Shown: positions 13,215-55,648, counted from the first letter of the stretch. The stretch is 61,604 nt of DNA from Clostridia bacterium (GCA_900754085.1 CAAEBO010000045.1:1-61604), one strand, 5' to 3'. A program made the numbers and translations. Notes: generated by a model not told the origin, from the sequence alone.

Positions 13215-13243
13215 GGGATTTTGGGGACGGTCCTAAAAATCCC
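13215..13243 (+). repeat. REP-like 29-bp palindromic element, forward copy
   Basis: GGGATTTTGGGGACGGTCCTAAAAATCCC, 9 nt after the ftsZ-like stop, followed by TTTTT. Confidence 0.9.
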
Positions 13244-13325
13244 TTTTTAAAACACCAAATGTTTTTACATTAAGGTGTTTTTTTTTGCCTAAATATGATA
13301 ATATTAACACATATGAGGTGAGCAA

Positions 13326-16300
13326 ATGAGTTTAAAATTAATATATGGCAGATCTGGGTCTGGTAAAAGTGAATTTTGCTTTAGAGATATTGCAAAAAAT
13401 ATAAATAAAGAGAAAATATATTTAATTGTACCAAACCAAATGGCATTAATGGCAGAAAAGAAATTAATGGAAATTACTAATAATGTAAGCTTAATAAATA
13501 CAGAGGTAATTACATTTAACAGAATGGCTTTTAGAGTAAGAAATGAAATAGGTGGAGCTAAAAAGACAAACTTAAGTAAAAGTGGAAAAGCAATGTTACT
13601 TTATGATATTCTAAGAAAACAAAAAGATTCTCTAAATTTTTTAGGAAAGAGTGCAGAGAATGTAGATATAATAGGTAATTCCATAACTGAGTTTAAAAAA
13701 CATAGAATAGATATAAACAAATTAAAAGAAGAATGTAACAATACAGATGATATGTATTTAAAGCTAAAATTAAATGATATGATTAAAATGTACGAAGAAT
13801 TCGAAAGTAGTATTCAAAATAGATTTTTAGATGAAAATGATGTTTTAGATATTTTAAATACTCAAATAGTAGAAAGTAATCAATTTAAAAATTCGATAAT
13901 ATATATAGATGAATTTGTAGGTTTTACAACCCAAGAATATCAAATAATCGCAAAATTGTTACAAATTGCAAAACAAGTAAACATTACAATTTGTACAGAT
14001 AATTTAATACAAGATGAAGAAGTGGATAAAGATATTTTTTATGCAAGCAAAAATACAGGAATAAAATTAATTAATATTGCAAAAGAATATGGAATAGAAA
14101 TAGAAGATGATGTAAAACTTACACAATTATATAGGTTTAAAAACGATGAACTTAAACATTTAGAAGGAAATTTTTATAATATACCATATAAAAAATACGA
14201 AGAAGAACCTAAAAATATAAAAATGTTTTTAGCTAATAATCAATATAGCGAAATAGAACATATAGCGAGCCAAATAGTAAAATTAGTTAGAAACGAAGAA
14301 TATAGGTATAAAGATATATCTGTTATAACTAAAAATTTAAATATATATTCTAGTTTAATAAAAGTAATATTTGGCAATTATAACATTCCAGTGTTTATAG
14401 ACGAAAAAAGAGAATTAAGTGAAAATATAATAGTAAAATTCTTAATTTCTGTTTTGGAAATATGTAGTAAAAATTGGTCATATGAGGCTGTATTTAATTA
14501 TTTAAAAACAGGTTTTGTAAATATAGATAGAGAAGAAATATTTAAATTAGAAAATTACTGTATAAGATGGGGAATAAAAGGAAATAAGTGGTATAGAGAA
14601 GATTGGAACTACTTAGGTAAAGATGAATACACACAAGAAGAACTGGAAAGATTAAATGAATTAAGAAGAATAATAGTAAAACCAATAAGAAATTTACAAG
14701 AAAAAGCTAAAAAAGATAGTACATTTTTAAATTTGACTAAAATTTTATATGAATTTTTACAAGAAATGAAATTAGAAGAAACAATAAGGCTAAAAATAAA
14801 TAAGTTAGAAGAAAAAGGCTTTATAGAACTTGCAAATGAATATGAAACTAGTTTTAAAGTTTTAATAGATTTATTTGACGAAATAGTTTTAGTATTTGGA
14901 GAAGAGAATACTAATTTTGATAAATATATAAATACGCTAAAAATAGGATTAAAAAATACAGGACTTGGTAAAATTCCTGCAACACAAGACGAAGTAATTG
15001 TAGGAGATGTTAGTAGATCTAGAAGTCATAAAGTTAAGGCGGTATTTATTATAGGAATAAATGATGGCGAATTTCCAAGCATTTATAAAGATGAGGGATT
15101 TTTTAACGATAAAGATAGAGAATACTTAAAAGGCCAAGGCTTTGAACTTGCAAATGGAAGTATAGAAAATTTATACGAAGAAAATTTTAATATATATAAA
15201 GCTTTTACAGTTGCAGAAGAAAAATTATTTCTTTCTTATGCTTCATCAGATAACGAAGGGCGAACACTAAGACCATCAATACTAATAACAAAGGTAAAAA
15301 AGATATATCCAAAATTGCAAGAAACAAGTGATATAATAATACAAGAGAAAGAGATTATTACTAAAAATAATACATTTGACAATTTAATAGAAAAATTAAA
15401 TGATTATCAAGAAGGAAAAGAAATAGAAGATATATGGTTTGACATTTTATATTATTATGAAAATGATGCTTTATGGAGAGGAAGACTTTTAAAGAGTTTA
15501 GAGGGGATTAATTATACAAATATTCCAGAAAAAATAAGACCAGAGTTTGTAAAAAAATTATATGGAGAAACGTTACATACAACGATTTCTAGATTAGAAC
15601 GATATAGAAGTTGTCCATTTTCTTTTTATTTAGAATATGGATTAAAATTAAAAGAGAAGAAATCTTTAAAATTAGATCCAATAGATACAGGTTCTTTTAT
15701 GCACGAGGTTATAGATACATTTTTCGAAGAAATTGCTAATAATAAAATTTCGATACAAGAAATTGAAAAAGCAGATATAGAAAAGATTGTAAAAAAAATA
15801 GTAGAAGAAAAATTAAATTTAACATCTAATTATATTTTTAAAAGTATTCCAAAGTTTATTATGCTTACAAATAGGCTATGCAGATTGGTAACACTTTCTA
15901 TAATATATATTGTTCAGGGACTTAAAAATACAGATTTTGAAGTAGTAGGAAATGAGATAGAATTTAAAAATGGCAAAGAATATAGACCTATAGAAATTAT
16001 TACAAAAGATGGTAGAAAAGTAGAAATAACAGGTAAAATAGATAGAATAGATTTAGCAAAAGATGAAACAGGAAAATATATTAGAATAATAGATTATAAA
16101 TCTTCTGCAAAAGATATAAATTTAAATGAAGTATTAGCAGGTCTACAATTACAATTAATTACATACTTAGATGCTGTATGCCAGGAAAAAGATTTAATAC
16201 CAGCAGGAATATTGTATTTTGGACTAGTAGAGCCTAAAATAGATAAAGGAAAAAGAGGAAAAGATATAACAGAGGAAGAGCTAGAACAAAAAATAAGGGA

Positions 16301-16706
16301 ACATTTTAGAATGAATGGACTAGTTTTGGCAGAAATGAAGGCTGTAAACATGATGGATAATAAGTTAAAAGATGGAGAAAAGTCAGACATAATTCCTGTT
16401 AAAATAAAAAAGGATGGAACTATGGATAAAACCTCTAAAGTAGTTTCAAGAAAAGAATTCGAAATTTTACAAAAGTATGTAAAAAAGACATTAGGAGAAA
16501 TTTCTAAAGAGATTTTAGATGGAAATATAGATATAAAGCCATATTATAATGTTAAAACTAAAAAGAAACCTTGTGAATATTGCAAATATAATTCGATATG
16601 TAATTTTAAAAAAGGATTTTATGGTAATGATTATAATTATATAGACAACATGGAAAAAGAATTTATACTTGAGTGTATGAAAGGAGATATTAATGAATCT
16701 AAGTAA
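13326..16706 (+). CDS. addB: ATP-dependent helicase/nuclease AddAB, subunit B
   Basis: N-terminal LIYGRSGSGKSEF. C-terminal RecB-type nuclease with Fe-S cysteines (RSCPFSF ... PCEYCKYNSIC). 1126 aa. Confidence 0.85.
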   Translation: MSLKLIYGRSGSGKSEFCFRDIAKNINKEKIYLIVPNQMALMAEKKLMEITNNVSLINTEVITFNRMAFRVRNEIGGAKKTNLSKSGKAMLLYDILRKQKDSLNFLGKSAENVDIIGNSITEFKKHRIDINKLKEECNNTDDMYLKLKLNDMIKMYEEFESSIQNRFLDENDVLDILNTQIVESNQFKNSIIYIDEFVGFTTQEYQIIAKLLQIAKQVNITICTDNLIQDEEVDKDIFYASKNTGIKLINIAKEYGIEIEDDVKLTQLYRFKNDELKHLEGNFYNIPYKKYEEEPKNIKMFLANNQYSEIEHIASQIVKLVRNEEYRYKDISVITKNLNIYSSLIKVIFGNYNIPVFIDEKRELSENIIVKFLISVLEICSKNWSYEAVFNYLKTGFVNIDREEIFKLENYCIRWGIKGNKWYREDWNYLGKDEYTQEELERLNELRRIIVKPIRNLQEKAKKDSTFLNLTKILYEFLQEMKLEETIRLKINKLEEKGFIELANEYETSFKVLIDLFDEIVLVFGEENTNFDKYINTLKIGLKNTGLGKIPATQDEVIVGDVSRSRSHKVKAVFIIGINDGEFPSIYKDEGFFNDKDREYLKGQGFELANGSIENLYEENFNIYKAFTVAEEKLFLSYASSDNEGRTLRPSILITKVKKIYPKLQETSDIIIQEKEIITKNNTFDNLIEKLNDYQEGKEIEDIWFDILYYYENDALWRGRLLKSLEGINYTNIPEKIRPEFVKKLYGETLHTTISRLERYRSCPFSFYLEYGLKLKEKKSLKLDPIDTGSFMHEVIDTFFEEIANNKISIQEIEKADIEKIVKKIVEEKLNLTSNYIFKSIPKFIMLTNRLCRLVTLSIIYIVQGLKNTDFEVVGNEIEFKNGKEYRPIEIITKDGRKVEITGKIDRIDLAKDETGKYIRIIDYKSSAKDINLNEVLAGLQLQLITYLDAVCQEKDLIPAGILYFGLVEPKIDKGKRGKDITEEELEQKIREHFRMNGLVLAEMKAVNMMDNKLKDGEKSDIIPVKIKKDGTMDKTSKVVSRKEFEILQKYVKKTLGEISKEILDGNIDIKPYYNVKTKKKPCEYCKYNSICNFKKGFYGNDYNYIDNMEKEFILECMKGDINESK

Positions 16707-17517
16707 CGAAAATGTTATTCACTTTAAAGCCGGAGATGTAGAATATTTACAATTTAGGGAATTGCTAAAATATTCAGATAAAATACAACATGCATATTCG
16801 TTAAAACCATTACAATTTAGCGATGATAACGAAGAAGCAACAGAAAATTATAGGAAAATATGTGAATTATTAAAAATAGATTCTAATAAAATAATAAAAT
16901 CTGTGCAAAAACATACCAATGTAGTACAAAACATAACAGAATTCACAAATGAAAACTTTGAATTTGTAGATGGGTTTGTAACGAACCAAAAAGGTATACC
17001 ATTAGTTACAAAATATGCAGATTGTACACCAATAATTTTTTATGATAAAATAAAAAACGTTATAGGAAATGTGCATTCTGGTTGGAGAGGAACTTTGCAA
17101 CGAATAAGCCAGAAAGCAGTTATAATGATGCAAGAAAAATATGGGAGTAATCCAGAAGATATTATAGTATGTATAGGCCCTTGCATAAAACAATGTCACT
17201 TTGAAGTAGAAGAAGATTTTATACAAAGATTTAAAGAAGAATTTGGAAATATAGAAAAATATTATAAAAAAGGAAAAAATAAAAATTTAGAAGAAAAGTT
17301 AAATAATAATCTTGAAAACAAAGAAGTAGGAGAAAAACAAAAATATTATTTTGATACAACAAAATTAATAATAGACGATTTAACAAAAATAGGAATTAAA
17401 AAAGAGAATATATTCGATAGTAATATATGTAGTGTATGTAATTCTAGTATAATGTATTCATATAGAGCAGAAAAAGAATTAGCAGATAGAAATATGAATA
17501 TAGTACAACTTTTATAA
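16693..17517 (+). CDS. pgeF: peptidoglycan editing factor PgeF / YfiH (DUF152, laccase-domain) family
   Basis: YADCTPIIF, NVHSGWRGTLQRI, CIGPCIKQCHFEV, C-terminal CSVC...YSYR. Contains a K/N/E-rich insertion. Overlaps the addB stop by 14 nt. Confidence 0.75.
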   Translation: MNLSNENVIHFKAGDVEYLQFRELLKYSDKIQHAYSLKPLQFSDDNEEATENYRKICELLKIDSNKIIKSVQKHTNVVQNITEFTNENFEFVDGFVTNQKGIPLVTKYADCTPIIFYDKIKNVIGNVHSGWRGTLQRISQKAVIMMQEKYGSNPEDIIVCIGPCIKQCHFEVEEDFIQRFKEEFGNIEKYYKKGKNKNLEEKLNNNLENKEVGEKQKYYFDTTKLIIDDLTKIGIKKENIFDSNICSVCNSSIMYSYRAEKELADRNMNIVQLL

Positions 17518-17594
17518 AATGTAATCCCATTCTTGTGAATAAAAAAATGAAGAAAAAGAACATTAATAATATTCAATTTTAGAAAGGAGAAATT

Positions 17595-18512
17595 ATGATA
17601 CCAAATAGACTAAAAAAAGGAGATACATTAGGAATAATTGCACCATCAGATAATGTGACAGAGCAAAATTTGGATGAATTTAATAGCTCAATTTTGTTAA
17701 TGGAACAAGCAGGATATAATATAAAGATAGGAAAAAATGTTTTTTCTAATGAAACAGAATATGGAGCAACAGCAAAACAAAAAGCAGATGATTTAAATAA
17801 AATGTTTGCTGATAAAGACGTGAAAATGGTTTGGTGTGCTAAAGGTGGTTATAATTCGAACTCTATTTTTGATTTGATTGATTATGAATTAATAAAAAAC
17901 AATCCTAAAATATTATGTGGATATAGTGATACTACTGCTATAGCTAATATAATTTATGAAAGAACAGGATTAGTTACATTTTCTGGTCAAACATTTAAAG
18001 GGTTAGCTTCGTGCGAAACAGAATATTGCTATAATGAAATTATAAAAAGATTACAAGAAGCAGATTTAGAACTTGGAGATAATAGTGATAAATATAATGT
18101 AATACATAAAGGTAAAGCAGAAGGTATTATGATTGGGGGAAATTTAAGTATATTTTCTAACTTAATAACAGGAAAATATAATATGAATATTAAAGATAAA
18201 ATTTTATTTTTAGAAGAATTTCCACTAGAATCACCACCAGAAGCAGTTAGTTCATATTTTTATAGAATGAAACAAAATGATGTTTTTAACCAAATTAAAG
18301 GAATATGGTTTGGTGGATATGAACATGAATCTGGAATAACACTTTCTAAAATATTAGAAGATACAATAGGAAATGAATATGATTTTCCAATAATACAATC
18401 AAGCAATTTTGGACATATAGATAAGAAAACAGTTATACCAATTGGAACAAAAGTAAAAATAGATACAGAAGACGAAGTAAAAATAAGATTATTAGAAAAA
18501 TGTGTAAAATAG
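17595..18512 (+). CDS. LD-carboxypeptidase (peptidase S66, LdcA/MccF-like)
   Basis: LKKGDTLGIIAPS, WCAKGGYNSN, CGYSDTTAI (nucleophile Ser), SNFGHIDKK. Confidence 0.8.
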   Translation: MIPNRLKKGDTLGIIAPSDNVTEQNLDEFNSSILLMEQAGYNIKIGKNVFSNETEYGATAKQKADDLNKMFADKDVKMVWCAKGGYNSNSIFDLIDYELIKNNPKILCGYSDTTAIANIIYERTGLVTFSGQTFKGLASCETEYCYNEIIKRLQEADLELGDNSDKYNVIHKGKAEGIMIGGNLSIFSNLITGKYNMNIKDKILFLEEFPLESPPEAVSSYFYRMKQNDVFNQIKGIWFGGYEHESGITLSKILEDTIGNEYDFPIIQSSNFGHIDKKTVIPIGTKVKIDTEDEVKIRLLEKCVK

Positions 18513-18530
18513 CATGAAGAGGTGTAAAAA

Positions 18531-19103
18531 TTGTACGATAATTGGGAAGACTTAGAAAAATCAATAATAGGTTGTAAGAAATGTAAATTATGCAATAATA
18601 GAACAAACATTGTATTTGCAGAAGGTAATAAAAATGCTAATGTAATGTTTATTGGTGAAGGTCCAGGAGCAGATGAAGATAAACAAGGAATACCATTTGT
18701 AGGAAAAGCAGGACAACTAATGAACAAAGCATTTGAAGGTTTGGGAATAGACAGAAAGAAAATATATATAGCAAATATAGTAAAATGCAGGCCACCAAAT
18801 AATAGAGTACCAGAAGTAGACGAAGCACAAGCATGCTTAAATTACTTAAGAAACCAAGTAATATTGGTAAAACCACAAATAATAGTACTAATGGGAAGCA
18901 CAGCACTTCAAAACATATTAGGAAAAGAATATAAAATAACAACAACAAGAGGACACTGGATAGAAAGAAAAGGAATAATGTATATGCCAACATGGCACCC
19001 AGCAGCACTATTAAGAGATGAAAACAAAAAAATAGACTTTTGGAAAGATCTAAAAAAAGTATTAGAAATGTGTGAAGAATTAAAAACAGAAATAGGGATT
19101 TAG
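18531..19103 (+). CDS. uracil-DNA glycosylase, family 4
   Basis: TTG start after GAGGTG. CKKCKLC, FIGEGPGADEDKQGIPFVGKAGQL, IVKCRPP, TWHPAALLR. Confidence 0.85.
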   Translation: MYDNWEDLEKSIIGCKKCKLCNNRTNIVFAEGNKNANVMFIGEGPGADEDKQGIPFVGKAGQLMNKAFEGLGIDRKKIYIANIVKCRPPNNRVPEVDEAQACLNYLRNQVILVKPQIIVLMGSTALQNILGKEYKITTTRGHWIERKGIMYMPTWHPAALLRDENKKIDFWKDLKKVLEMCEELKTEIGI

Positions 19104-19122
19104 GGATGGTCCTTAAAATCCC
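19095..19122 (+). repeat. REP-like element, forward copy (28 nt, slightly diverged)
   Basis: GGGATTTAGGGATGGTCCTTAAAATCCC. Contains the last two sense codons and the TAG stop (19101-19103) of the UDG gene. Confidence 0.8.
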
Positions 19123-19157
19123 TGTTACTAGAGTAAATAAAAAATGGGAGGGGCATA

Positions 19158-19706
19158 ATGGAAAAATATTTTAAAGATATGGATTACGAAAAATTAAGTG
19201 AAGAAATAGCTTTTAAAGGGAAAAGAGTTACAGTAAAAGTTGAAAAGTATTTTAATAAAAGGGATAATAAAGAAATCTATCGTGAGCATATAAAATCTGG
19301 AAATGGAGCTGTTATAATGCCTTTTTTAGATGATAATACATTAATTATGATAGAAGAGGTAAGAACACCTATAGAAAAAAGTATATTAGCATTTCCAGCA
19401 GGCTTAATAGAAGAAGGAGAAAATCCAGAAGAAGCAGCTATAAGGGAATTAGAAGAGGAAACAGGTTATAGAGCAGGAGAAATAGAAGAAATAATATACG
19501 AATATCCAGCGGTAGGGTATTCTAACGAAAAAGTATATATATTTAAGGCGAAGAACTTAACTAAAACACAAAGAAATTTAGACCCTACAGAAGATATACA
19601 AGTACATAAAATTTCTATAAATAAGTTAAAAGAATTATACAAAAATGGAGAAATACATTCTTCAGCAGAAATAATAGCTATATTAAGTTATTTTTCGAAT
19701 ATATAA
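19158..19706 (+). CDS. NUDIX hydrolase (ADP-ribose pyrophosphatase-like)
   Basis: Nudix box GLIEEGENPEEAAIRELEEETGY; 182 aa. Confidence 0.8.
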   Translation: MEKYFKDMDYEKLSEEIAFKGKRVTVKVEKYFNKRDNKEIYREHIKSGNGAVIMPFLDDNTLIMIEEVRTPIEKSILAFPAGLIEEGENPEEAAIRELEEETGYRAGEIEEIIYEYPAVGYSNEKVYIFKAKNLTKTQRNLDPTEDIQVHKISINKLKELYKNGEIHSSAEIIAILSYFSNI

Positions 19707-19726
19707 AATTATAAACAGGAGGAAAA

Positions 19727-20977
19727 ATGAATAATTTAATAGAAGAATCAAATAGATGCTTAAATTGTAAAGTTAAACCATGTCAAAAAGCATGTCCTTT
19801 AGGTAATGATATTCCTAGTTTTATAAAATGTGTTAAAGAAAATAATTTAAAGGAGGCTTTTAATGTTTTAACAAAAACTACTGTTTTGGGAGCAATTTGT
19901 GGTAGAATTTGTCCGCATTTTAAACAATGTAAAGGAAGCTGTGTAAGAGGTATAAAAACAGAACCTATAAGTATTGGCGAATTGGAAGCCTATGTGTTTG
20001 ATAATGCGTTTAAAGAAGATTATAAAATAAAAACGACTAAGGAATTAGAAGGAAAAAAAGTTGCAGTAATAGGAGGTGGACCTTCTGGTCTTACTTGTGC
20101 AGCTTTTTTAAAGATGTATGGCGCAGATGTTACTATTTACGAGAAACAGCCAAAACTTGGAGGCATTACAAGATATGGAATACCAGACTTTAGATTATCT
20201 AGAGAAATAATAGATAAAAATATAGAAAAAATACTAAACTTAGGAATAAAAGCAGAGTGTAATAAATCTTTTGGAAAGGATTATAATCTAGAAGACTTAG
20301 AAAAAGAATATGATGCTATATATTTAAGCTTTGGAGCAAATGTATCATCAAAAATGAATATACCAGGTGAAAACTTACAAGGTATATATGGAGGAAATGA
20401 ACTATTAGAAACAAATATGCACCCGGATTATACAGGGAAAAATGTAGCAGTAAGTGGTGGAGGAAATGTAGCCATGGATACTGCAAGAACAATAAAACGA
20501 TTAGGAGCAAAAAATGTATATGTAATATATAGAAGAGCAAAAGAACAAATGCCAGCAGAAGAACTAGAAATAGAAGAAGCAGAAAAAGAAGGAATAGAAT
20601 TTTTATTTAAAACAAATATTATAAAAATATTAGGAAATGAAAAAGTAGAAAAATTAGAATGTATAAAGACAGAATTAGTACAAAAAGAAGGGGAAAAAAG
20701 ACCTGTACCTGTAAATATAGAGAATTCTAATTATTTACTAGATATGGACTATGTAGTAATGGCAGTAGGATCTAAGCCTAATGAAGAAATTGTTTCTAAA
20801 ACTAAGTTAGAAGTAACACAATATGGAAATATAAAAGTAGATGAAAATTACATGACATCCAAAAAAGGAATATTTGCAGGTGGAGATTTAATAGGAACAA
20901 AATCAACTGTGGCATGGGCTGCACGTTCTGGAAGAAATGCTTCAGAAGCAATAAAAAATTATTTATTAGAAAAGTAA
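19727..20977 (+). CDS. NAD(P)H-dependent FAD/Fe-S oxidoreductase, glutamate synthase small-subunit (GltD/NfnB/SudA) family
   Basis: RCLNCKVKPCQKACPLGNDIPSFI, a second Cys cluster, and two dinucleotide folds (VAVIGGGPSGLTCA; VAVSGGGNVAMD). Confidence 0.75.
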   Translation: MNNLIEESNRCLNCKVKPCQKACPLGNDIPSFIKCVKENNLKEAFNVLTKTTVLGAICGRICPHFKQCKGSCVRGIKTEPISIGELEAYVFDNAFKEDYKIKTTKELEGKKVAVIGGGPSGLTCAAFLKMYGADVTIYEKQPKLGGITRYGIPDFRLSREIIDKNIEKILNLGIKAECNKSFGKDYNLEDLEKEYDAIYLSFGANVSSKMNIPGENLQGIYGGNELLETNMHPDYTGKNVAVSGGGNVAMDTARTIKRLGAKNVYVIYRRAKEQMPAEELEIEEAEKEGIEFLFKTNIIKILGNEKVEKLECIKTELVQKEGEKRPVPVNIENSNYLLDMDYVVMAVGSKPNEEIVSKTKLEVTQYGNIKVDENYMTSKKGIFAGGDLIGTKSTVAWAARSGRNASEAIKNYLLEK

Positions 20978-37224: not shown

Positions 37225-37253
37225 GGGATTTTGGGGACGTACCTTAAAATCCC
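37225..37253 (+). repeat. REP-like element, forward copy, ACGTACC centre variant (left boundary of RAYT cassette)
   Basis: GGGATTTTGGGGACGTACCTTAAAATCCC, 16 nt after the ferredoxin stop, followed by TGTTTTTTTT. Exact reverse complement of 38719-38747. Confidence 0.9.
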
Positions 37254-37355: not shown

Positions 37356-38150
37356 ATGCCAAGAACATCAAGAGAAAGTATTAAATCTAATTTTATTCAC
37401 ATTGTAACAAAGGGAGTAACAAGAGAATTTATATTTTATAAAAAAGAATATAAAGATAAATATATTTCTTTGCTAAAACAAAAGTTAGAGAATGGTATCC
37501 AATTAATATCATATTGTGTTATGGACAACCATGCACATATATTAATGTATATGGAAGATATAAAAATATTGGAGAAATTCATGAAAAAACTGAACACAGC
37601 ATATGCTATTTTTTATAATGCGAAAGAAGAAAGGGAAGGATACGTTTTTGCTACTAGATATTATTCACAAATCATAAAAAATGAAAAACACTTATTACAG
37701 TGTATGCATTATATTCATAAGAATCCTGTAAAAGCTGGAATTGTAAGCTTGCCTAAAAATTATAAATATTCATCATACAATGCAATTATGAATGGAAAGA
37801 TGCAAGCTGAAATATTAAAATCTGTATTCGGAGAGAATTTTTATTATATGTATGCAGAAGCTGATGCAGAAGCTGATGCAGAAGCTGATACAGAAGAAAA
37901 TGGTAATTTTATAGAGGAAGATTTACAAAATAATATTATAGATAAAAAGGACGTAGAGGATATGATTAACGAATTTTGCAATAAAAAGGGTACAACAATG
38001 AAGCAAATAAAACAGTCAAATAAATTAATAATAGAGTTGAAGGAACATTTGAATATAAACCATAGGGTAAGTAACAAAAATATATGTGCTATATTAGGAA
38101 TTGGTAAAAATAGAATAACTCTAATAGAAAGAAAATTAAAAAAAGATTAG
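37356..38150 (+). CDS. REP-associated tyrosine transposase (RAYT; IS200/IS605-like Y1/HUH family) with C-terminal HTH-like tail
   Basis: GGAGG RBS. CVMDNHAHILMY (HUH), GYVFATRYYSQIIKNEKHLLQCMHYIHKNPVKAGIV...YKYSSY (catalytic Tyr helix, RAYT flavour). Tail ends ...NKNICAILGIGKNRITLIERKLK. Confidence 0.8.
   Translation: MPRTSRESIKSNFIHIVTKGVTREFIFYKKEYKDKYISLLKQKLENGIQLISYCVMDNHAHILMYMEDIKILEKFMKKLNTAYAIFYNAKEEREGYVFATRYYSQIIKNEKHLLQCMHYIHKNPVKAGIVSLPKNYKYSSYNAIMNGKMQAEILKSVFGENFYYMYAEADAEADAEADTEENGNFIEEDLQNNIIDKKDVEDMINEFCNKKGTTMKQIKQSNKLIIELKEHLNINHRVSNKNICAILGIGKNRITLIERKLKKD
37854..37889 (+). repeat. perfect 12-bp coding tandem repeat x3 (GCAGAAGCTGAT = AEAD)
   Basis: Read directly. Encodes AEADAEADAEAD in the linker between the Y1 domain and the C-terminal tail of the RAYT. 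Confidence 0.9.
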
Positions 38151-38293: not shown

Positions 38294-38322
38294 GGGCAAA
38301 AAAGGAACGTCCCTGAAATTCC
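38294..38322 (-). repeat. decayed REP-like element (reverse orientation)
   Basis: GGGCAAAAAAGGAACGTCCCTGAAATTCC: about 19 of 29 positions match the reverse-orientation consensus. The left arm has lost complementarity. Confidence 0.45.
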
Positions 38323-38341: not shown

Positions 38342-38656
38342 ATGAAAATGACATGGATAACTAGAAGAATGAGTTATGAACAAATTAAGCCTAATAAGCA
38401 AATAAGATATATGCAAATATTACAAAGATTATGTTTGGGGAATAAGTCTGCGAAAGAGATTGCTGTGGAATTGTATAATTTAAATTTGGCAAGTACCGAT
38501 GAACGCAATGTTGCGGCGCCTAGATTAACAGAGTTAGAAAAGTTGGGATTTGTGGAAGAAACAGCAAAGAAAATATGTGAATATACAGGGAGAACTGTAA
38601 CTGTATATAAGATTACGAAAAAAGAATTTGAATTTATACATAAAGTAAATCAATGA
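38342..38656 (+). CDS. small winged-helix DNA-binding protein (MarR/ArsR-like), function unknown
   Basis: AGAGGAG RBS. 104 aa. KSAKEIAVEL...NVAAPRLTELEKLGFVEE...TGRTVTVYKIT looks like HTH plus wing. Contains locally GC-rich codons unusual for this window. Confidence 0.5.
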   Translation: MKMTWITRRMSYEQIKPNKQIRYMQILQRLCLGNKSAKEIAVELYNLNLASTDERNVAAPRLTELEKLGFVEETAKKICEYTGRTVTVYKITKKEFEFIHKVNQ

Positions 38657-38718: not shown

Positions 38719-38747
38719 GGGATTTTAAGGTACGTCCCCAAAATCCC
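38719..38747 (-). repeat. REP-like element, reverse copy, ACGTACC centre variant (right boundary of RAYT cassette; 3' of porB)
   Basis: GGGATTTTAAGGTACGTCCCCAAAATCCC, 8 nt beyond the stop of the minus-strand porB. Confidence 0.9.
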
Positions 38748-39709: not shown

Positions 39710-39711
39710 TA

Positions 39712-41261: not shown

Positions 41262-41290
41262 GGGATTTTAAGGACCGTCCCCGAAATCCC
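41262..41290 (-). repeat. REP-like element, reverse copy, inside the por operon (between gamma and delta genes)
   Basis: GGGATTTTAAGGACCGTCCCCGAAATCCC, 3 nt beyond the porC stop. Reverse complement is identical to the copy at 55620. Confidence 0.9.
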
Positions 41291-48871: not shown

Positions 48872-49465
48872 ATGAAAATTAATAAATTAATAATAGTTAT
48901 TATATTTATAGTAATTATTATAAGTGTAGGTATTTTTATGTTAAAAAATAATAAAAAAGTTGAAATTGGGAATAATGATAGTAATCAAATTTTAAATATG
49001 AACTCGTATAAAGCTCAGATAGAATTAACTGTTATAAGCAATAAAAATACTAACAAATATAAAGTTATGCAAGAATATAAAAAAGATGAATATTGCATTC
49101 AAGAAATAGTGGAACCAGAAAATATTAAAGGTGTAAAAATAGAATATAGTAATAATACTCTAACATTAAAAAATACCAATTTAAATCTTACAAACATTTA
49201 TGAAAATTATAAATATATCGCAGAAAATAATTTGTTTTTAGATAAATTTATAGAAGACTTTAAAAACAGTGAAAATTCAAGCAAGCAAGAATCAGAAAAT
49301 GAATTTATTTTAACTACAGATTGTAAAACAAAAGAAAATAAATATCAGGTTAAAAAGAAATTAGTTATAAATAAACAAACAAATAAGCCAGTAAAATTAG
49401 AAGTACAAGACATTAACCAAAATATAACTGCTTACATATTATATAATGAGATAAGTTATAAGTAG
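48872..49465 (+). CDS. hypothetical membrane-anchored protein (possibly LolA-fold/YdcC-like)
   Basis: GGGAGGGG RBS. N-terminal TM anchor ([17 protein letters not shown]), beta-rich remainder. Fold suggestion only by position upstream of mazF and by composition. Confidence 0.45.
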
Positions 49466-49536
49466 TAAAAAGCTATTTTCTTTATCTCGAGCTAGTATTT
49501 AAAACAAGATATATACTAATAATGGGAGTGAAGAAA

Positions 49537-49887
49537 ATGAATATAAGAAGAGGCGACATGTTTTATGCAGACTTAAGTCCTGTTGTTGGCTCAGAGCAAG
49601 GAGGAATTAGACCAGTTTTAATAATTCAAAATGATTTAGGAAATAAGTATAGTCCAACTGTAATTGCAGCTGCAATTACATCTCAAAAAACTAAAAATAA
49701 GTTGCCTACACATATAGAAATAAATTCAAAAGATTTTGGGTTAAAATCAGATTCTATAGTGCTTGCAGAACAAATTAGAACAATAGACAAAAGTAGATTA
49801 AAAGAGAGAATAGGACATATAGATAATGATGAAATTATAGGTAAAATAAATAATGCGTTAGGGGTTAGCTTTGGATTAGGCGAATAA
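49537..49887 (+). CDS. mazF: mRNA interferase toxin MazF/EndoA (PemK family)
   Basis: [47 protein letters not shown]...LPTHIEI...[17 protein letters not shown] closely parallels B. subtilis EndoA. Start at ATG 49537 after GGGAG. Confidence 0.85.
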
Positions 49888-49936
49888 AATTGTTATTAGA
49901 ATTGATTTATTTTTATAACAATTCTAAGTATAAAAA

Positions 49937-49982
49937 AGCGTGTATGAGATTTAATTAAGTTTTAAAAAATCTTATACACGCT
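49937..49982. terminator. long hairpin (bidirectional terminator) between convergent mazF and HD-GYP genes
   Basis: AGCGTGTATGAGATTT / AAATCTTATACACGCT, 16-bp stem (one G-T), 14-nt loop. The arm is related to the hairpin at 59167. Confidence 0.7.
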
Positions 49983-50006
49983 ATAATTATTAGAATAATT
50001 AAAAGA

Positions 50007-50035
50007 GGGATTTTAAGGACCGTCCCCAAAATCCC
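50007..50035 (-). repeat. REP-like element, reverse copy
   Basis: GGGATTTTAAGGACCGTCCCCAAAATCCC, 13 nt beyond the stop of minus-strand gene 50049-50987. Confidence 0.9.
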
Positions 50036-50048
50036 GCATAAATTCTAG

Positions 50049-50987
50049 TTAGACTTGTAGTTTTTTTATTATTTTTATTTCTTCATATAATTTTTCTACT
50101 ATTTCTTTTCTGGTTATATATGCTGTTTGATATTCATGATATATTTTGTGGATATTACTAAAGTTTTCGCCTTCTTCAAAAAGTATTTCCATTCCTTCTT
50201 TGTAATAGTTCTTTTTCTTTTCTGTGTGTGCTTTTTCCATTTTTTCTTCATATTCTAAAATTTGTTCTATTCTTTTTATTTGATTTTTTAAATAGTCTAC
50301 ATATCCAGAAACACAACTAATTTCATAATAAGTGTCATCTATTACTACTTTAAATAAAGCTTTTACAACTTTTTTATTAAGTTTACCAAGTTTTACTCCT
50401 TGTGCAGCATTGTCTAAAGCTGCAACTTTAATGTTTGGAGTAGTGTCTTTTATTAAGTCTTTTAAAGTGTCAGATATGTGAATATGTGTTTTGTATTGTC
50501 TTTTGGTAACTAAGGCATCGTAATCGTCTGCTACTTTTATAATTTGATCTTCGTATGGAATAGAAGAACCTTCTAAACCTTCTGGATAGCCTGTACCATC
50601 TAATGTTTCATGATGATATTTAGGACCAAGTGCATATGGTCTTAAGCGAATATCATCTATACACATTTTATAACCAATAAGTGTATGTGTCTTCATAATA
50701 TCAAATTCTTCATCAGTTAGCTTATCCGGTTTATTTAGAATTTTTGCAGGTATAAACATTTTACCAATATCATGAAGATATGCACAAATTGTACAATAAG
50801 AAGTGAAATTTTTATCACAATGCAAATATTCACATAATCTACAAGTAATACTTGCAACATTTTCACTATGGATTCTTGTAAAAGGGTCTAGACTGTCTAA
50901 CATAGTTAATTGATATCTCATTGTGACATCTAAATTATATGATTTTAAAGTGGTTTTATCATAAAAATCAAATTTGTTATCTAACAT
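50049..50987 (-). CDS. HD-GYP domain protein (putative c-di-GMP phosphodiesterase), paralogue A
   Basis: HSENVA, YLHDIGKMFIP, HHETLDGTGYPEGL, VADDYDALVTKRQYK. Coiled-coil C-terminal extension. Confidence 0.8.
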   Translation of the reverse strand: MLDNKFDFYDKTTLKSYNLDVTMRYQLTMLDSLDPFTRIHSENVASITCRLCEYLHCDKNFTSYCTICAYLHDIGKMFIPAKILNKPDKLTDEEFDIMKTHTLIGYKMCIDDIRLRPYALGPKYHHETLDGTGYPEGLEGSSIPYEDQIIKVADDYDALVTKRQYKTHIHISDTLKDLIKDTTPNIKVAALDNAAQGVKLGKLNKKVVKALFKVVIDDTYYEISCVSGYVDYLKNQIKRIEQILEYEEKMEKAHTEKKKNYYKEGMEILFEEGENFSNIHKIYHEYQTAYITRKEIVEKLYEEIKIIKKLQV

Positions 50988-51009
50988 TTAAAACTCCTCT
51001 TTAGTAAAA

Positions 51010-51900
51010 TTATATTTTTAATTTTTTAATTTCTTTTAATTCTGCATTTAATTTATCTATAATTTTTTCTTTTTCGGTTAAAGCATTTTCATAATCTTCT
51101 AGAATACCTAAACAATTGTCTACAGTTTCACCAGTATCAAGCAACATTTTCATTCCTTCTAAATAATAATTTTTTTGTTTTTCAGAAGAAACAGACATCA
51201 TTTTATCATGATATTTTTTTACTTGTTTTAATCTTTTTATGTTTTCTTTTAAGTAATCTAAATAGTTAAAAGCAGAAGATATTTCGTAAATAGTATCGTC
51301 TATTACAACTTTTTTTAGTGCTTTTGTAGCGGGGATATTATTTTTTCCATTATGTGCGTTTTCTATTAATATTTTTAAAGTATCAACAATACCAATATGA
51401 GATTTATATTGTCTTTTACTAACAATGGCATCAAATTCATCTGCAACTCTAATAATTTGCGCTTCTATTGGAATTTTGTCACCTGCTAACCCATCTGGAT
51501 AACCTTTACCATTTAAAGCTTCGTGATGGTATTTGGCACCAGCTGAATATGGTCTTAAATTAAGATCATCCATACACATTTTATAGCCAATAGTTGTATG
51601 TGTTTTCATAATTTCATATTCTTCATCTGTAAGTTTTGCAGGTTTTTGCAAAATAGAAGGTGGAATAAACATTTTTCCAATATCATGTAAATATGCACAA
51701 GTAGTACAATATATAGTAAAATCTTTATTTAAATGCAAATAATCACAAATTCTACAAGTTATATTTGCAACGCTTTCAGAATGTTTACGTGTAAAATTGT
51801 CTAGTGAATCTAACATTTTTAATTGATACCTAGCTGTTGAATCTAAGTCGTAAGATTTTAAGACAGTTTTATCATAAAAGTCAAATTTTTCTTTAATCAT
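51010..51900 (-). CDS. HD-GYP domain protein, paralogue B
   Basis: HSESVA, YLHDIGKMFIP, HHEALNGKGYPDGL (Asp to Asn in the DGxGYP part), VADEFDAIVSKRQYK. Collinear with paralogue A over most of its length. Confidence 0.8.
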   Translation of the reverse strand: MIKEKFDFYDKTVLKSYDLDSTARYQLKMLDSLDNFTRKHSESVANITCRICDYLHLNKDFTIYCTTCAYLHDIGKMFIPPSILQKPAKLTDEEYEIMKTHTTIGYKMCMDDLNLRPYSAGAKYHHEALNGKGYPDGLAGDKIPIEAQIIRVADEFDAIVSKRQYKSHIGIVDTLKILIENAHNGKNNIPATKALKKVVIDDTIYEISSAFNYLDYLKENIKRLKQVKKYHDKMMSVSSEKQKNYYLEGMKMLLDTGETVDNCLGILEDYENALTEKEKIIDKLNAELKEIKKLKI

Positions 51901-52065
51901 TTTGTTACTCCTTTGTATATTATTATTACATATAAGTAATTAATTAATCCGAAATTTCTACAAAAATATAATATCATTAAATGAAATAAAGTTCAATATA
52001 TTGTTGATTTATATCGATTTTTAATATATTATAAGTAGGTACAAAAAGATAAAAAGGTGATAAAA

Positions 52066-55000
52066 ATGTATTTAAAAAGATTAGAATTACAAGGATTTAA
52101 ATCCTTTGCAGATAAAACAATTTTAGAATTTATGACAGGAATTACTACAGTTATAGGACCTAATGGGTCTGGAAAAAGTAATATTTCGGATGCAATTCGT
52201 TGGGTATTAGGAGAACAAAGTATAAAATCTTTAAGGGGAGCTAAATCTGAAGATATAATTTTTGCTGGAACGCAAAATAGAAAGTCTTTAGGTTTTGCAG
52301 AAGCATCTTTAGTTTTTGATAATAATGATGGTAAATTGCCAATAGAATATTCAGAAGTTACAGTTACAAGAAGAATATATAGAACTGGTGAAACAGGATA
52401 TTTTATAAATAAAACGCCATGTAGATTAAAAGATATTTTAGAATTATTTATGGACACAGGAATAGGAAAAGATGGATATTCTATTATAGGGCAAGGAAAA
52501 ATAGATGAAATATTAAGCAATAAATCAGAAGATAGAAGACATATTTTTGAAGAAGCAGCAGGAATTGTAAAATATCGTTCAAGAAAAGAAGATTCAGAAA
52601 AGAAATTAGAAAGAGCAAAATTAAATTTATTAAGAATAAACGATATATTATCAGAAATAGAAAATAATATAGAACCATTAAAAATTCAATCAGAAAAAGC
52701 TAAGAAATTTTTAAGTTTAAGAGAAGAATTAAAGGGAATAGAAGTAGGACTATTTTTATATAACATAGACTTATATAAAGAAAGATTAGAAAAAATAACA
52801 GCAGACGAAGAAATTATGAATTCAACATATGAAAGTGAAGAGAACAGTCAAAAATTAAAAAATGAAGAAAAGAACAATTTGAAGTTAGAAATAAATAACT
52901 TAATAGAAGAAATAGAAAAAATGCAAAATATTGGTTTCGAAAGTACAAACCAAATAGAAAAAATAAATTCTAATATAAATGTTTCAGAAGAAAGAATTAA
53001 TAATATAAAAGAAAACAATATAAGATATGAAACAGAAATAAATGAATTAAACGAGAAAATAGAAGAGCTAAAAGAAGAAGAGAAACAAAAAATAGCTAAA
53101 AAAGAAAATTTATATAGTAACAAAGAAAAGTTCGAAAAAGAGTTAAAAGAGAAAGAAGAAGAATTAAGTAAATTAACAACCAAATTATCTAGTAAACAGT
53201 TAGAAATAGAAAATAAAAAAAGAATAATAGAAGAAAACACAGACAATAAATATGAAATTCAGAATGAAATAAATACACAAGATGTAAAAGTGGATTCTAT
53301 AATAAAAAATGTTAAATCAAAAACAGAAGAATTGGAGCTTACAATTTCAGAATTAGACCAATCTAGATTAAAGAAAAGTGAAATAGAGCAAAACTTTTTA
53401 GATATCGAAAACAAAAGGAATAAAATAAAAAATGATTTAAGTGAAATAGAAAATAAGAAGATAGAAGCAGATAATAAAATAAAAACGTTTGAATTACAAA
53501 TAAATCAATTAGGACAAGAAATTAGAATAAAAGAATCTAGATTAAAGTTTTTAGAAGAAACAGAAAAAGAAAAAGAAGGATATACAAAAAGTGTTAAATC
53601 TTTACTTAAATCTGCAGAAGCAAATAAGGAATTGAAAAAAGGATTACACGATGTAGTAGCAAATTTAATAAATGTTAAAAAGGAATATGAAATTGCAATA
53701 GAAATGGCATTAGGTGCAAGCCTTCAAAACGTAGTTACAGAAACAGAACAAGATGCTAAAAACTTAATAGAATACTTAAGAAAGAACAATTTAGGAAGAG
53801 TAACGTTTTTACCTATTTCAGCAGTTAATGGTAAAAAACTAGAAAAGGCACACTTAAATATTAAAGGTGTAATAGGAATTGCATCAGATTTAGTAGAATA
53901 CAATAATAAATATGATGGAATATTTAAAAATTTATTAGGAAGAACAGTAATTGTAGAAGATATGGAAGCAGGAATTGCTGTGGCTAAGAAAAATAGTTAT
54001 TCTTTTAGAATTGTAACATTAAAAGGAGATATAATTAATTCTTCTGGAGCTATGACAGGTGGTTCTGTACAAACTAAAACAGTGAATATATTAGGAAGAA
54101 GTAGAGAGATAGAAGCACTAAAGGAAGAATTAAAAGGTTTAAATATAAAAATAAAAAATAAAGAAGAAGAAAAAGAAAAATATATAGATAGCATAGAAGA
54201 CCTATTAGAAACAATAGAAAGTTTAGAAACTAATTTACAAGAGATTGATATAGAGTATGCTACACAAAAACAAAAAGTAGAGCTAATAGTAGAAAATGTT
54301 GATAAATTAGTTAATAGAATGGATAAAACTAAACAAGAAATAGAAAATTTAAACAAACAAAAGATAGAAATTACTGAACATAAAAAACAATTAATAGAAA
54401 GCCTAGAAAATTTAGAAGAAGAGATTCAAAAATTAAATCTAGAAGTAGAAGAATTTGTTAGATTAAATAAAGATGACCAAACATATATAGATAATTTAAA
54501 CATGGATATAACAAACTTAAAAATATCTGTATCATCATTTGAAGAAAGCGAAATGTCAATAGACGAGATTACAGAAAGAATAAAAATAGATATAAAAAAT
54601 AATACATTAAGTTTAGAAATGAAGAAAGAGCAGATAGAAAAGAATAAACAAGAAGAGGAAAGTTTAAAGGCTAAAATAGAAGAATTACAAAATGATATTA
54701 TTAAGATAAAAGAAAATGTAAAAAATAGTGGCTCAAAAATAGAAGAATTAAAAAATGAAAAAAATGAGAAGAATACTTATTTAGAGAAAATAGAAAAAGA
54801 TATAGAAGAGCAATTTACAAAATTACAAGATATAAAAGAGCAACTAGTAAAAATTGATATAAAGAAAAATAAGACATCACAAGATTTAGAAGATGTAGTT
54901 AATAAACTATGGGAAGAATACGAATTAACTCCTAATAATGCAGGTGGATTTACAAAAACAACAGATCAAGCTAAAACACAAAAAGAAGTTAATTATTTAC

Positions 55001-55611
55001 GAACACAAATTAGAGACTTAGGAAGTATAAATATAGATTCTATTAAAGAATACCAAATATTAAAAGAAAGATATGACTTTATGTGTGAACAAAGACTAGA
55101 CTTAGAAAATTCTATGTCAAAATTAAGAAATGTAATTTCTGAAATGATAAATATAATGAAGACACAATTTAAAGATAAATTTAAACTTATAAACAAAAAC
55201 TTTAACGAAGTATTTACAGAATTATTTGGTGGAGGAAAAGCAGAATTAATATTAGAAAACGAAGAAGATGTTTTAAACTGTGGAATAGACATAAGAGTAC
55301 AACCACCAGGTAAAAAGCTACAAAATATGACATTACTATCTGGAGGAGAAAAAGCATTTACAGCAATTGCAATATTATTTGCAATATTAAAAATAAATCC
55401 AGCACCATTCTGTGTATTAGACGAAATAGAAGCAGCATTAGATGACGTTAATGTTAACAGATATGCAGAATACCTAAAGAAATTTGCAACATATACACAA
55501 TTCTTAGTAATAACACATAGAAAAGGAACAATGGAAGCAGCAGACACAGTATATGGAATAACAATGGAAGAAAACGGAATAAGTAAATTACTTTCTATGA
55601 AACTAAAATAA
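52066..55611 (+). CDS. smc: chromosome partition protein Smc
   Basis: MYLKRLELQGFKSF, GPNGSGKSNI, long coiled coils, hinge (LGRVTFLP), LSGGEKA, FCVLDEIEAALD. Start at ATG 52066 after AAAGGTGA. Confidence 0.9.
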   Translation: MYLKRLELQGFKSFADKTILEFMTGITTVIGPNGSGKSNISDAIRWVLGEQSIKSLRGAKSEDIIFAGTQNRKSLGFAEASLVFDNNDGKLPIEYSEVTVTRRIYRTGETGYFINKTPCRLKDILELFMDTGIGKDGYSIIGQGKIDEILSNKSEDRRHIFEEAAGIVKYRSRKEDSEKKLERAKLNLLRINDILSEIENNIEPLKIQSEKAKKFLSLREELKGIEVGLFLYNIDLYKERLEKITADEEIMNSTYESEENSQKLKNEEKNNLKLEINNLIEEIEKMQNIGFESTNQIEKINSNINVSEERINNIKENNIRYETEINELNEKIEELKEEEKQKIAKKENLYSNKEKFEKELKEKEEELSKLTTKLSSKQLEIENKKRIIEENTDNKYEIQNEINTQDVKVDSIIKNVKSKTEELELTISELDQSRLKKSEIEQNFLDIENKRNKIKNDLSEIENKKIEADNKIKTFELQINQLGQEIRIKESRLKFLEETEKEKEGYTKSVKSLLKSAEANKELKKGLHDVVANLINVKKEYEIAIEMALGASLQNVVTETEQDAKNLIEYLRKNNLGRVTFLPISAVNGKKLEKAHLNIKGVIGIASDLVEYNNKYDGIFKNLLGRTVIVEDMEAGIAVAKKNSYSFRIVTLKGDIINSSGAMTGGSVQTKTVNILGRSREIEALKEELKGLNIKIKNKEEEKEKYIDSIEDLLETIESLETNLQEIDIEYATQKQKVELIVENVDKLVNRMDKTKQEIENLNKQKIEITEHKKQLIESLENLEEEIQKLNLEVEEFVRLNKDDQTYIDNLNMDITNLKISVSSFEESEMSIDEITERIKIDIKNNTLSLEMKKEQIEKNKQEEESLKAKIEELQNDIIKIKENVKNSGSKIEELKNEKNEKNTYLEKIEKDIEEQFTKLQDIKEQLVKIDIKKNKTSQDLEDVVNKLWEEYELTPNNAGGFTKTTDQAKTQKEVNYLRTQIRDLGSINIDSIKEYQILKERYDFMCEQRLDLENSMSKLRNVISEMINIMKTQFKDKFKLINKNFNEVFTELFGGGKAELILENEEDVLNCGIDIRVQPPGKKLQNMTLLSGGEKAFTAIAILFAILKINPAPFCVLDEIEAALDDVNVNRYAEYLKKFATYTQFLVITHRKGTMEAADTVYGITMEENGISKLLSMKLK

Positions 55612-55619
55612 CAAAAACA

Positions 55620-55648
55620 GGGATTTCGGGGACGGTCCTTAAAATCCC
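55620..55648 (+). repeat. REP-like element, forward copy
   Basis: GGGATTTCGGGGACGGTCCTTAAAATCCC, 8 nt after the smc stop. Confidence 0.9.

Follow-up and report, generated by a model that had tools for sequence, protein, structure and literature searches.

The window, which is the whole analysed stretch of 61,604 nucleotides from a Clostridia bacterium, harbors seven intact or near-intact copies of a 29-nt palindromic repeat (7 in 61.6 kb) and a gene for a putative Y1 HUH tyrosine transposase of the RAYT/TIRYT class (Table 1). A mismatch-tolerant search with at most three mismatches to the 29-nt consensus recovers six of the copies in the window, i.e., all but the one at 19095, which differs from the consensus by its deletion and one substitution; from 100 shuffles of the window, the number expected by chance is 0. 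Only the copy at 50007 is perfect. Together with its flanks, the whole repeat unit spans about 37 nt and reads AATA-GGGATTTTGGGGACGGTCCTTAAAATCCC-TATT. An initial annotation of this DNA had counted the same seven copies and two decayed ones, and all of these are present. An Rfam search of the window returned no match.

Table 1. Repeat copies and the transposase gene in the window.
Feature	Position	Strand	Context
REP copy	13215..13243	+	9 nt past ftsZ stop codon, then TTTTT
REP copy, 1-nt deletion	19095..19122	+	last two codons and TAG stop of the uracil-DNA glycosylase gene (udg)
REP copy, GTACC variant, 5-nt loop	37225..37253	+	16 nt past ferredoxin (fdx) stop codon; left end of the REPtron, RAYT start 102 nt downstream; TGTTTTTTTT directly 3′
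Putative RAYT/TIRYT-type Y1 HUH tyrosine transposase, 264 aa	37356..38150	+	HUH motif H59, H61; Y119-IHKNP; C-terminal helical extension
Decayed inverted REP	38294..38322	-	9 mismatches; 143 nt past RAYT stop codon
REP copy, GTACC variant as at 37225	38719..38747	-	inverted relative to 37225; 8 nt past porB stop
REP copy	41262..41290	-	3 nt past porC stop, ~50 nt before porD; interior of por operon; no U-tract
REP copy, perfect consensus	50007..50035	-	13 nt past stop of HD-domain gene; convergent with mazF-like gene; terminator-like
REP copy	55620..55648	+	8 nt past smc stop codon; convergent with ytaF
Decayed REP remnant	61547..61573	+	close to window end

All seven copies in the window are in sense orientation relative to the gene with the nearest stop codon, and they lie at about -10 to +16 nt from stop codons, the extremes being 9 nt of overlap and a gap of 16 nt. 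The initial annotation placed every copy 2-16 nt after a stop codon. This holds for six copies (3-16 nt) but is wrong for 19095 because the udg stop codon (19101-19103) is inside the repeat. The T-rich tracts described behind 13215 and 37225 are confirmed, and 50007 also has one.

Computed folding of the consensus as RNA yields the 13-bp stem and 3-nt loop that had been proposed for the mRNA sense (-16.2 kcal/mol), while the complementary RNA contains a 2x2 internal loop (-10.7 kcal/mol). When both orientations are folded for each of the seven copies, the sense RNA (-11.9 to -16.2 kcal/mol) is always more stable than the antisense RNA (-9.6 to -11.1 kcal/mol), by 1.3 to 5.5 kcal/mol. For the DNA strands, the gap narrows to 1.1 kcal/mol (-7.7 vs -6.6), and the more stable hairpin in single-stranded DNA is again that of the top strand. 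The apex of the hairpin is constant, GGGGACGG, with G-T wobbles on one (top) strand only.

The open reading frame at 37356-38150 was overlooked in the initial annotation. Its product matches Pfam Y1_Tnp (E=1.3e-8) and the full NCBIfam REP_Tyr_transpos profile (E=7e-19), the latter with 68 bits, which is below the family cut-off of 80 bits. Across 70 homologues, H59/H61 and Y119-x3-N123-P124 do not vary. The AlphaFold model (pLDDT 81.5) has as its best PDB match 4er8 (E=2e-5), a complex of E. coli TnpA-REP with a REP hairpin; this structure is also matched by the sequence profile. The C-terminal extension is predicted to be helical (residues 200-263), with 10-residue blocks of mean pLDDT 79-92 over residues 201-260, and carries a conserved ILGIGKNRI motif; a Pfam search of this extension gave no match, and two homologues carry PF13412, an HTH family. 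With both the predicted fold and the catalytic motifs present, the product is a putative Y1 HUH transposase of the RAYT/TIRYT class.

The RAYT gene is single-copy and is bracketed by the forward repeat at 37225 upstream and by the inverted repeats at 38294 and 38719 downstream, which is the layout of a REPtron or TIRtron. The GTACC variant is rare and confined to the two copies bracketing the gene (37225 and 38719); the same pair is found at the orthologous locus L036. Between the RAYT stop codon and the intact right-hand copy at 38719 lie 568 nt that include an unrelated 104-aa ORF; judged by position, the decayed 38294 is the likely original right end. Of 80 homologous loci, 70 have a forward GGGAC[AG] hairpin within 300 nt upstream of the gene and 64 have an inverted one within 300 nt downstream (opposite orientations: 11 upstream, 14 downstream), and many Bacillota conserve this arrangement of a gene with inverted hairpins.

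The hairpins flanking these transposase genes are conserved as structures. In a count for which hairpins were pre-selected for at least nine pairs, 93% of cells are paired vs 63% in shuffles, both sides have changed in 9 of 13 pairs, and the outer stems covary. Three of the five apical pairs are most often G-U, and the same-strand G-T wobbles are kept in dozens of distantly related genomes. The wobbles, which the initial annotation took as a sign of RNA-level selection, are a property of the predicted single-strand DNA substrate of the transposase. That claim is therefore unsupported; the asymmetry is no proof of RNA selection because it is conserved with the predicted recognition hairpin of the transposase.

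Given the RAYT gene, a DNA-level, transposase-driven origin becomes the primary explanation of the family. The repeats are very probably the REP hairpins of a REPtron/TIRtron that its RAYT has spread, with copies settling at gene 3′ ends. By analogy with the enzyme family, the transposase would recognise the top-strand hairpin once the DNA is single-stranded, and would cut and join that strand such that hairpins spread around the chromosome. The G-rich arm of a copy usually lies against, or overlaps, the stop codon of a co-directional gene, and copies at such 3′ ends are consequently transcribed as 3′-UTR hairpins. The polarity itself could arise from RNA-level selection after insertion or from insertion into the non-template strand.

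REP/RAYT systems are already known as a kind, and the window family is an additional member. In TIRYT genes, the flanking repeats carry GGGGWSAS (Di Nocera et al. 2013, PMC3733652). The TIRtrons of these authors are probably the counterpart of TnpA-Y1 subclass 2.1 (Quentin et al. 2018, PMC6006769); this subclass includes nearly all of RAYT Group 1, a group recorded in Clostridia (Bertels et al. 2017, PMC5581495). Compared by features, the window RAYT appears closest to this TIRYT/subclass 2.1/Group 1 assemblage. As in TIRtrons, the Y1 enzyme is RAYT-like and extended at its C-terminus, and its gene lies between inverted repeats with a core at or near GGGGWSAS: the window core GGGGACGG is one mismatch away, and relatives such as L062, with GGGGACAC, fit exactly. 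Self-complementarity is also seen in some TIRtron repeats, which make up dispersed families of moderate abundance that include dimers and clusters. In contrast, the flanking repeats of the window are compact perfect hairpins dispersed at ~1 per 10 kb, and the list of Di Nocera et al. contains no Firmicutes (PMC3733652). Likewise, no REP-like structures were found beside subclass 2.1 genes (PMC6006769), and the flanking 16-mers of Group 1 reached only about 12 occurrences (PMC5581495).

With the classical REP/BIME/REPIN systems (E. coli TnpA-REP, 4er8; Pseudomonas REPINs), the window family shares a single-copy Y1 HUH transposase flanked by its own hairpins, G-T pairs in the stems, and an extragenic, transcribed location mostly downstream of genes, where the repeats can supply stop codons. 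According to published work, REPs are found 3′ of ORFs, provide stop codons, and have many G-T pairs (PMC3733652). A sister family (family B) forms inverted doublets, as REPINs do. However, the classical 5′ GTAG foot (GT[AG]G, or CGTC) is absent from the repeat flanks, whose 5′ consensus is A-A-T-A (-1 A 0.71, -2 T 0.52); the conserved element is instead at the hairpin apex, the repeats in the window are singletons rather than inverted pairs, and the host belongs to a low-GC gut Clostridia lineage rather than the Proteobacteria. The IS200/IS605 elements (IS608, ISDra2) have in common with the window system the Y1 HUH fold and subterminal hairpins that are recognised on one DNA strand, with imperfect pairing separating top from bottom strand. 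They differ in that the window hairpins are dispersed without the gene, are oriented independently of replication, and belong to an enzyme with the RAYT-type tyrosine motif Y-x3-NP rather than the IS200 type.

At least 17 MAG species carry the dispersed family, with a density of about one copy per 10 kb; 209 copies were recorded in 131 loci of related genomes. A census covers 128 de-duplicated sites in related gut Clostridia genomes, for which repeat loci were gathered by near-exact matches and genes were called with a purpose-made ORF and codon-score caller rather than taken from annotation. A single site (1/128) is called within a gene. Between same-direction genes, the window's family (family A) is sense at 60 and antisense at 21 sites (p=1.7e-5), and outside the window it is sense in 57 of 78 such pairs. 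At convergent sites, the copy lies against the sense stop codon in 14 of 15 cases (11/12 outside the window). A stop codon is found within -35 to +16 nt of 46/60 sense but only 5/21 antisense copies (Fisher 3.6e-5). Many copies begin ahead of the effective stop codon, the ORF running into the repeat and terminating there, and no conserved target motif was found around the insertion points; the 5′ ends of the repeats fall at -35 to +16 nt of stop codons. Family B behaves similarly (40 sense vs 21 antisense; 14/15 convergent sites against the sense stop). Summed over both families, 106 sites have the G-rich arm facing a stop codon no more than 16 nt away, as against 19 for the other arm. Orientation is thus non-random with respect to neighboring genes, although the "strict strand coupling" of the initial annotation is a strong bias and not a rule: the transcribed orientation holds for 7/7 copies in the window but for about three in four between same-direction genes of related genomes, the remaining quarter being antisense.

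The empty-site search yielded one clean pair, in which the repeat is present in L172 and missing from the same site in L190, the remaining candidates being too diverged to read. At the ftsZ site, 8 assemblies share an identical 120-nt intergenic spacing with no visible polymorphism, which suggests that the repeat is present in each of them. In some relatives, copies form direct tandem arrays with a 37-nt period and inter-copy gaps of ~6-8 nt.

Part of the family resembles intrinsic terminators. Both have G-C base pairs at the stem foot, and a U-tract follows 26/51 stop-adjacent sense copies in the census vs 2/17 antisense copies read in the direction of the transcript. In the window, a consensus terminator scan flags 3/7 copies, and 19095, 41262, and 55620 do not combine a G-C-rich stem with a U-tract. 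Unlike ordinary terminators, the REP copies share one sequence, are mobile, in many cases have no U-tract, and in one case lie within an operon. They are also nearer to stop codons than the non-REP terminator-like hairpins of the window (about 20-60 nt). Liang, Rudd and Deutscher (2015) reportedly placed REPs within 15 nt of stop codons. Judging from sequence features, about half of the stop-adjacent sense copies, those with a U-tract, probably end transcription, and the rest are probably 3′-end barriers or neutral. The proposal of a terminator is supported for the former half, whereas a general terminator role is excluded because 41262, between porC and porD, is within an operon and has no U-tract.

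According to the initial annotation, the hairpin is selected in RNA as a terminator or 3′ stabiliser, and the G-U wobbles mark the functional mRNA strand. As an account of why the family exists, this is a tentative reading, and one somewhat more probably wrong than right. The sense bias and stop-codon adjacency in two families, the greater stability of the sense RNA hairpin, and the U-tracts behind about half of the stop-adjacent sense copies, which are rare behind antisense ones, all point to it, and a precedent exists in E. coli REP325, which can both terminate transcription and stabilise upstream mRNA (bioRxiv 10.64898/2026.03.23.713779). However, the wobble asymmetry is kept at transposase-flanking hairpins of distant genomes in any gene context, the small strand difference in DNA favors the same hairpin, ~25% of copies between same-direction genes are antisense, and the porC-porD copy is not terminator-like. 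Furthermore, stop-adjacent sense copies are no better preserved or retained across species than antisense or distant ones (a weak test, as the loci were gathered by near-exact matches); no excess conservation that would point directly to a selected RNA role is seen. Selection on RNA also leaves the origin of identical copies unexplained.

Alternatively, the polarity may be set at insertion, with the Y1 transposase placing the top-strand hairpin into the non-template strand at the end of translation, where the nascent RNA is free to form an R-loop. Since such an R-loop would form just past the stop codon, where ribosomes no longer cover the nascent RNA, both the sense orientation and the stop-codon anchoring would follow. 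Y1 transposases act on DNA only when it is single-stranded, and a proposed substrate of TnpA-REP is the DNA of R-loops (PMC3333891). The narrow zone of repeat 5′ ends at stop codons (-35 to +16 nt) without a target motif, the unexceptional preservation of stop-adjacent sense copies, and the strongly purine-rich coding strands are consistent with this route; purine bias of coding strands has been linked to transcription outrunning ribosomes (PMC13323073). Nonetheless, the scheme is wholly inferential and on balance unlikely: the many ORFs that end inside a repeat are not obviously predicted by an R-loop model, and clustering at gene ends could also result from purifying selection against promoter and coding hits. 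If true, REP transposition would be coupled to transcription and translation rather than replication, and the singleton REPs of these Clostridia would offer the first direct view of REP insertion polarity.

It is highly improbable that orientation follows replication, via the lagging-strand template as for IS608, with the apparent link to transcription reflecting co-directional genes. IS200/IS605 elements do show a lagging-strand-template bias (cited in PMC3333891), and same-direction pairs do not discriminate between the two models, since nearly all of their genes are on the inferred leading strand. Convergent sites were used for this question because only 6 same-direction sites are on the inferred lagging strand; they divide into 7 leading and 9 lagging, yet 14/15 abut a sense stop. 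In the window, the replication component of the GC skew is positive and the + strand carries 78% of genes. Three of the seven copies nonetheless run against the leading strand, each of them following a gene on the - strand. Replication-coupled orientation was rejected on these grounds.

The faintest prospect is that the repeats are protein-binding sites, DNA-uptake sites, or a degenerate CRISPR-like array independent of the transposase: the 37-nt tandem arrays of some relatives invite this reading, as do the inverted-repeat uptake sequences that some bacteria also use as terminators, but the tandem gaps are only ~6-8 nt, copies outside such arrays are scattered one by one, Rfam has no match in the window, and the tight, conserved RAYT association accounts for the family, so that the CRISPR and DNA-uptake readings were rejected.

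REP insertion in living cells and the effects of REPs on the host are both still being worked out (bioRxiv 10.64898/2026.03.23.713779). Most REPs of the best-studied hosts are inverted pairs, which hides any polarity. Here, polarity is exposed because the repeats are singletons; it is reproducible, and the repeats go with an apparent member of a RAYT class reported to be without REPs (PMC6006769), providing a concrete handle on RNA-level selection vs strand-specific insertion. As the repeats overlap or supply stop codons, gene-end and terminator calls will be affected in many gut Clostridia MAGs.

The palindromes of the window are the REP family of a transposase of the RAYT/TIRYT type (REP- or TIR-associated Y1 HUH tyrosine transposases), whose gene, overlooked in the initial annotation, lies between two of the copies. 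Its 264-aa product harbors a Pfam Y1_Tnp domain and matches the full NCBIfam REP_Tyr_transpos profile (E=7e-19; 68 bits, under the 80-bit cut-off). The HUH histidines H59/H61 and the Y119-x3-N-P motif are invariant across 70 homologues. A profile search of solved structures returns 4er8 (E. coli TnpA-REP) as the sole match, and the same structure is the top match of the AlphaFold model (pLDDT 81.5), above the IS608 and ISDra2 transposases. The bracketing copies at 37225 and 38719 are mutually inverted and are the only ones to carry a 'GTACC' loop variant; together with the gene, they form a REPtron/TIRtron layout. The decayed inverted copy at 38294, 143 nt past the RAYT stop codon, occupies the place of the right-hand hairpin in relatives.

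Repeat copies and neighboring features in the window
Feature	Position	Strand	Remark
ftsZ	12258-13205		
REP copy	13215	+	at most 3 mismatches
REP copy	19095	+	1-nt deletion; recovered by looser scan
REP copy	37225	+	at most 3 mismatches
RAYT gene	37356-38150		
Decayed REP copy	38294	-	recovered by looser scan
104-aa ORF	38342-38656	+	weak winged-HTH match (AraR_C, E=0.003), no other family match
REP copy	38719	-	at most 3 mismatches
REP copy	41262	-	at most 3 mismatches
MazF/PemK-like toxin gene	49522-49887	+	Pfam E=7e-34; convergent with HD-domain gene
REP copy	50007	-	at most 3 mismatches
REP copy	55620	+	at most 3 mismatches
REP remnant	61547	+	confirmed present

An AEAD tetrapeptide occurs three times, followed by TEEN, in RAYT residues of about 165-180, and the closest homologue (P0001) lacks eight residues of this region. 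This tandem repeat, polymorphic in length, falls in the linker that joins the catalytic domain to the C-terminal helices, a low-confidence part of the model. The 104-aa ORF lies between the decayed and intact copies at 38294 and 38719 and therefore shares a REP-bounded segment with the transposase; the ORF may be cargo or have inserted later.

TIRYT genes are RAYT-like, and the inverted repeats on either side of them have GGGGWSAS in common; some of these repeats are self-complementary and reach moderate abundance. For REPs, the same authors noted a location downstream of ORFs, an ability to provide stop codons, and a high content of G-T pairs (Di Nocera et al., PMC3733652, in which Firmicutes and Clostridia are unmentioned). 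Quentin et al. equate TIRYTs with subclass 2.1, with C-terminal HTH-like domains, and found no REP-like structures beside its genes (PMC6006769). Group 1 RAYTs have been recorded in Clostridia, with flanking 16-mers of only about 12 occurrences (Bertels et al., PMC5581495).

With at most three mismatches to the 29-mer of the initial annotation, the window holds six copies (0 expected in 100 shuffles), and the remaining copies claimed there are also present, one with a deletion and two as remnants. ORF lists and Pfam/NCBIfam scans confirm the genes ahead of the copies as ftsZ, uracil-DNA glycosylase (udg), a 60-aa ferredoxin, and smc, as well as the TPP-binding and gamma subunits of pyruvate:ferredoxin oxidoreductase and an HD-domain protein. 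Every intact copy is sense, i.e., in the transcribed orientation of the gene with the nearest stop codon, and six begin 3 to 16 nt after it. The claimed position directly after the stop codon does not hold for udg, whose TAG lies inside the repeat, the final two codons (Gly-Ile) and the stop being REP-derived (19095-19103).

As RNA, the consensus folds into the previously proposed 13-bp stem with a 3-nt loop (-16.2 kcal/mol), while its complement has a 2x2 internal loop (-10.7 kcal/mol). The sense RNA is the more stable by 1.3-5.5 kcal/mol across the seven window copies; for the consensus folded as DNA, the strand difference is 1.1 kcal/mol.

Species-representative genomes yielded at least 561 stretches with RAYT relatives, 80 of which were fetched. 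The motif GGGAC[AG], which sits at the hairpin apex in relatives, occurs at most 300 nt upstream on the same strand as the gene at 70/80 homologous loci and at most 300 nt downstream on the opposite strand at 64/80, versus 11/80 and 14/80 in the respective reverse orientations; the outer stem varies between genomes. Pairs were counted in 23 hairpins from the upstream side, all with a 3-nt loop and pre-selected to have 9 pairs or more; 93% of cells are paired, versus 63% when shuffled and at most 60% with the partner column slid, and both sides change in 9 of 13 stem pairs. Apical G14-G15-G16-A17 is invariant in this set, and at three of the five apical pairs G-U outnumbers every other pair type (in 19, 12, and 9 of the 23 hairpins). 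The initial annotation had taken the wobble asymmetry as a mark of RNA-level selection. Its conservation in transposase-flanking hairpins makes it instead a deep property of the hairpin beside the transposase gene. An asymmetric hairpin is the substrate to be expected for an enzyme acting on one DNA strand.

The polarity of the repeat is real and reproducible, though not strict. Two pattern scans of gut 'uncultured Clostridium/Clostridia' MAGs gave 131 loci with 209 copies of this family (family A); genes were called with a codon-score ORF caller checked on the window, and merging sites with homologous flanks left 128. Between same-direction genes, 60 copies are sense and 21 antisense (p=1.7e-5; 57 and 21 with the window excluded), such that the earlier strand coupling persists as a bias but loses its strictness. 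A stop codon lies between -35 and +16 nt relative to the repeat 5' end in 46/60 sense copies, compared with 5/21 antisense copies equally near the upstream gene's stop (Fisher 3.6e-5). At convergent sites, the copy is closer to the sense stop codon in 14/15; six sites are divergent. ORF ends inside the repeat are common, as TAG (-2, -9, or -10) or TAA (-23), and TAG, mostly repeat-supplied, accounts for 27 of the 63 stop codons listed at up to 30 nt from a sense copy. No target motif is conserved between stop codon and repeat at the family A sites. Antisense copies tend toward the next gene's start rather than the previous stop codon; one (L035, 3529-3559) lies 9-12 nt before the RBS of a gene encoding MVKIRLQRQG..., which we take to be ribosomal protein S16.

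The full repeat unit is about 37 nt (AATA...TATT), equal to the period of direct tandem arrays in some relatives. Two or three units follow one another head to tail at L029 6557-6622, L030 449-547, and L012 5503-5564, the second unit often being degenerate.

A sister hairpin, TGAACTTTAGGGACGTTCCTTAAAGTTCA (family B), flanks a RAYT homologue in other Clostridia MAGs (L261, the L048 region). Over at least 120 loci (L244-L363; 144 de-duplicated sites), its singletons are 40 sense and 21 antisense and adjoin the sense stop codon at 14/15 convergent sites. The family consists largely of inverted doublets, all '+ then -' (44 vs 0) with spacers of 7-86 nt, which mimic the order of the RAYT gene's own flanks, resemble REPINs or miniature transposase-gene flanks, and also adjoin the upstream gene's stop codon. 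Summing stop-adjacent counts of both families, a stop codon lies within 16 nt of the G-rich arm at 106 sites and of the other arm at 19.

The polarity may be caused by either RNA-level selection or strand-specific insertion. R-loop DNA has been suggested as a possible substrate (Ton-Hoang et al., PMC3333891). As to function, at least five T within the next 8 nt follow 26/51 stop-adjacent sense copies versus 2/17 antisense copies in the transcript direction; 46/99 copies are followed by four or more T in a row, and the symmetric A-run precedes 25/99. The window copies at 37225, 38719, and 50007 are terminator-like in the consensus scan, and the window's other terminator-like hairpins, which are not REPs, are about 20-60 nt away from stop codons. 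The 41262 copy has no U-tract and sits between porC and porD, which excludes a terminator role for it. Stop-adjacent sense copies do not exceed the others in preservation or in how often they are shared between species, in a test that is weak because loci were ascertained through near-exact matches. REPs at most about 15 nt from a stop codon reportedly reduce translation (Liang, Rudd and Deutscher, 2015), and in Bacillus, terminators near stop codons are reportedly tolerated since transcription there runs ahead of ribosomes (Johnson et al., 2020). One E. coli REP (REP325) acts at once as terminator and stabilizer (2026 preprint, bioRxiv 10.64898/2026.03.23.713779).

Replication-coupled orientation is disfavored, since the + strand is the leading strand on the replication component of GC skew (+0.09; coding strand, +0.21), yet 3/7 window copies lie on the - strand, each following a - strand gene, and convergent sites split 7 leading to 9 lagging, same-direction pairs being uninformative because nearly all are on the inferred leading strand. 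The window has 25-31% G+C and positive GC skew over its whole length. Its coding strands are strongly purine-rich (+ strand genes: GC skew +0.30, AT skew +0.25; - strand genes: both negative, read on the + strand), a pattern tied to transcription ahead of ribosomes and Rho avoidance (2026 paper, PMC13323073).

The exact FtsZ protein of the window is indexed in 310 public-assembly blocks, among them a 1.22-Mb long-read contig; this marks the organism as a common gut species, for which a near-complete genome is available to support a full census.
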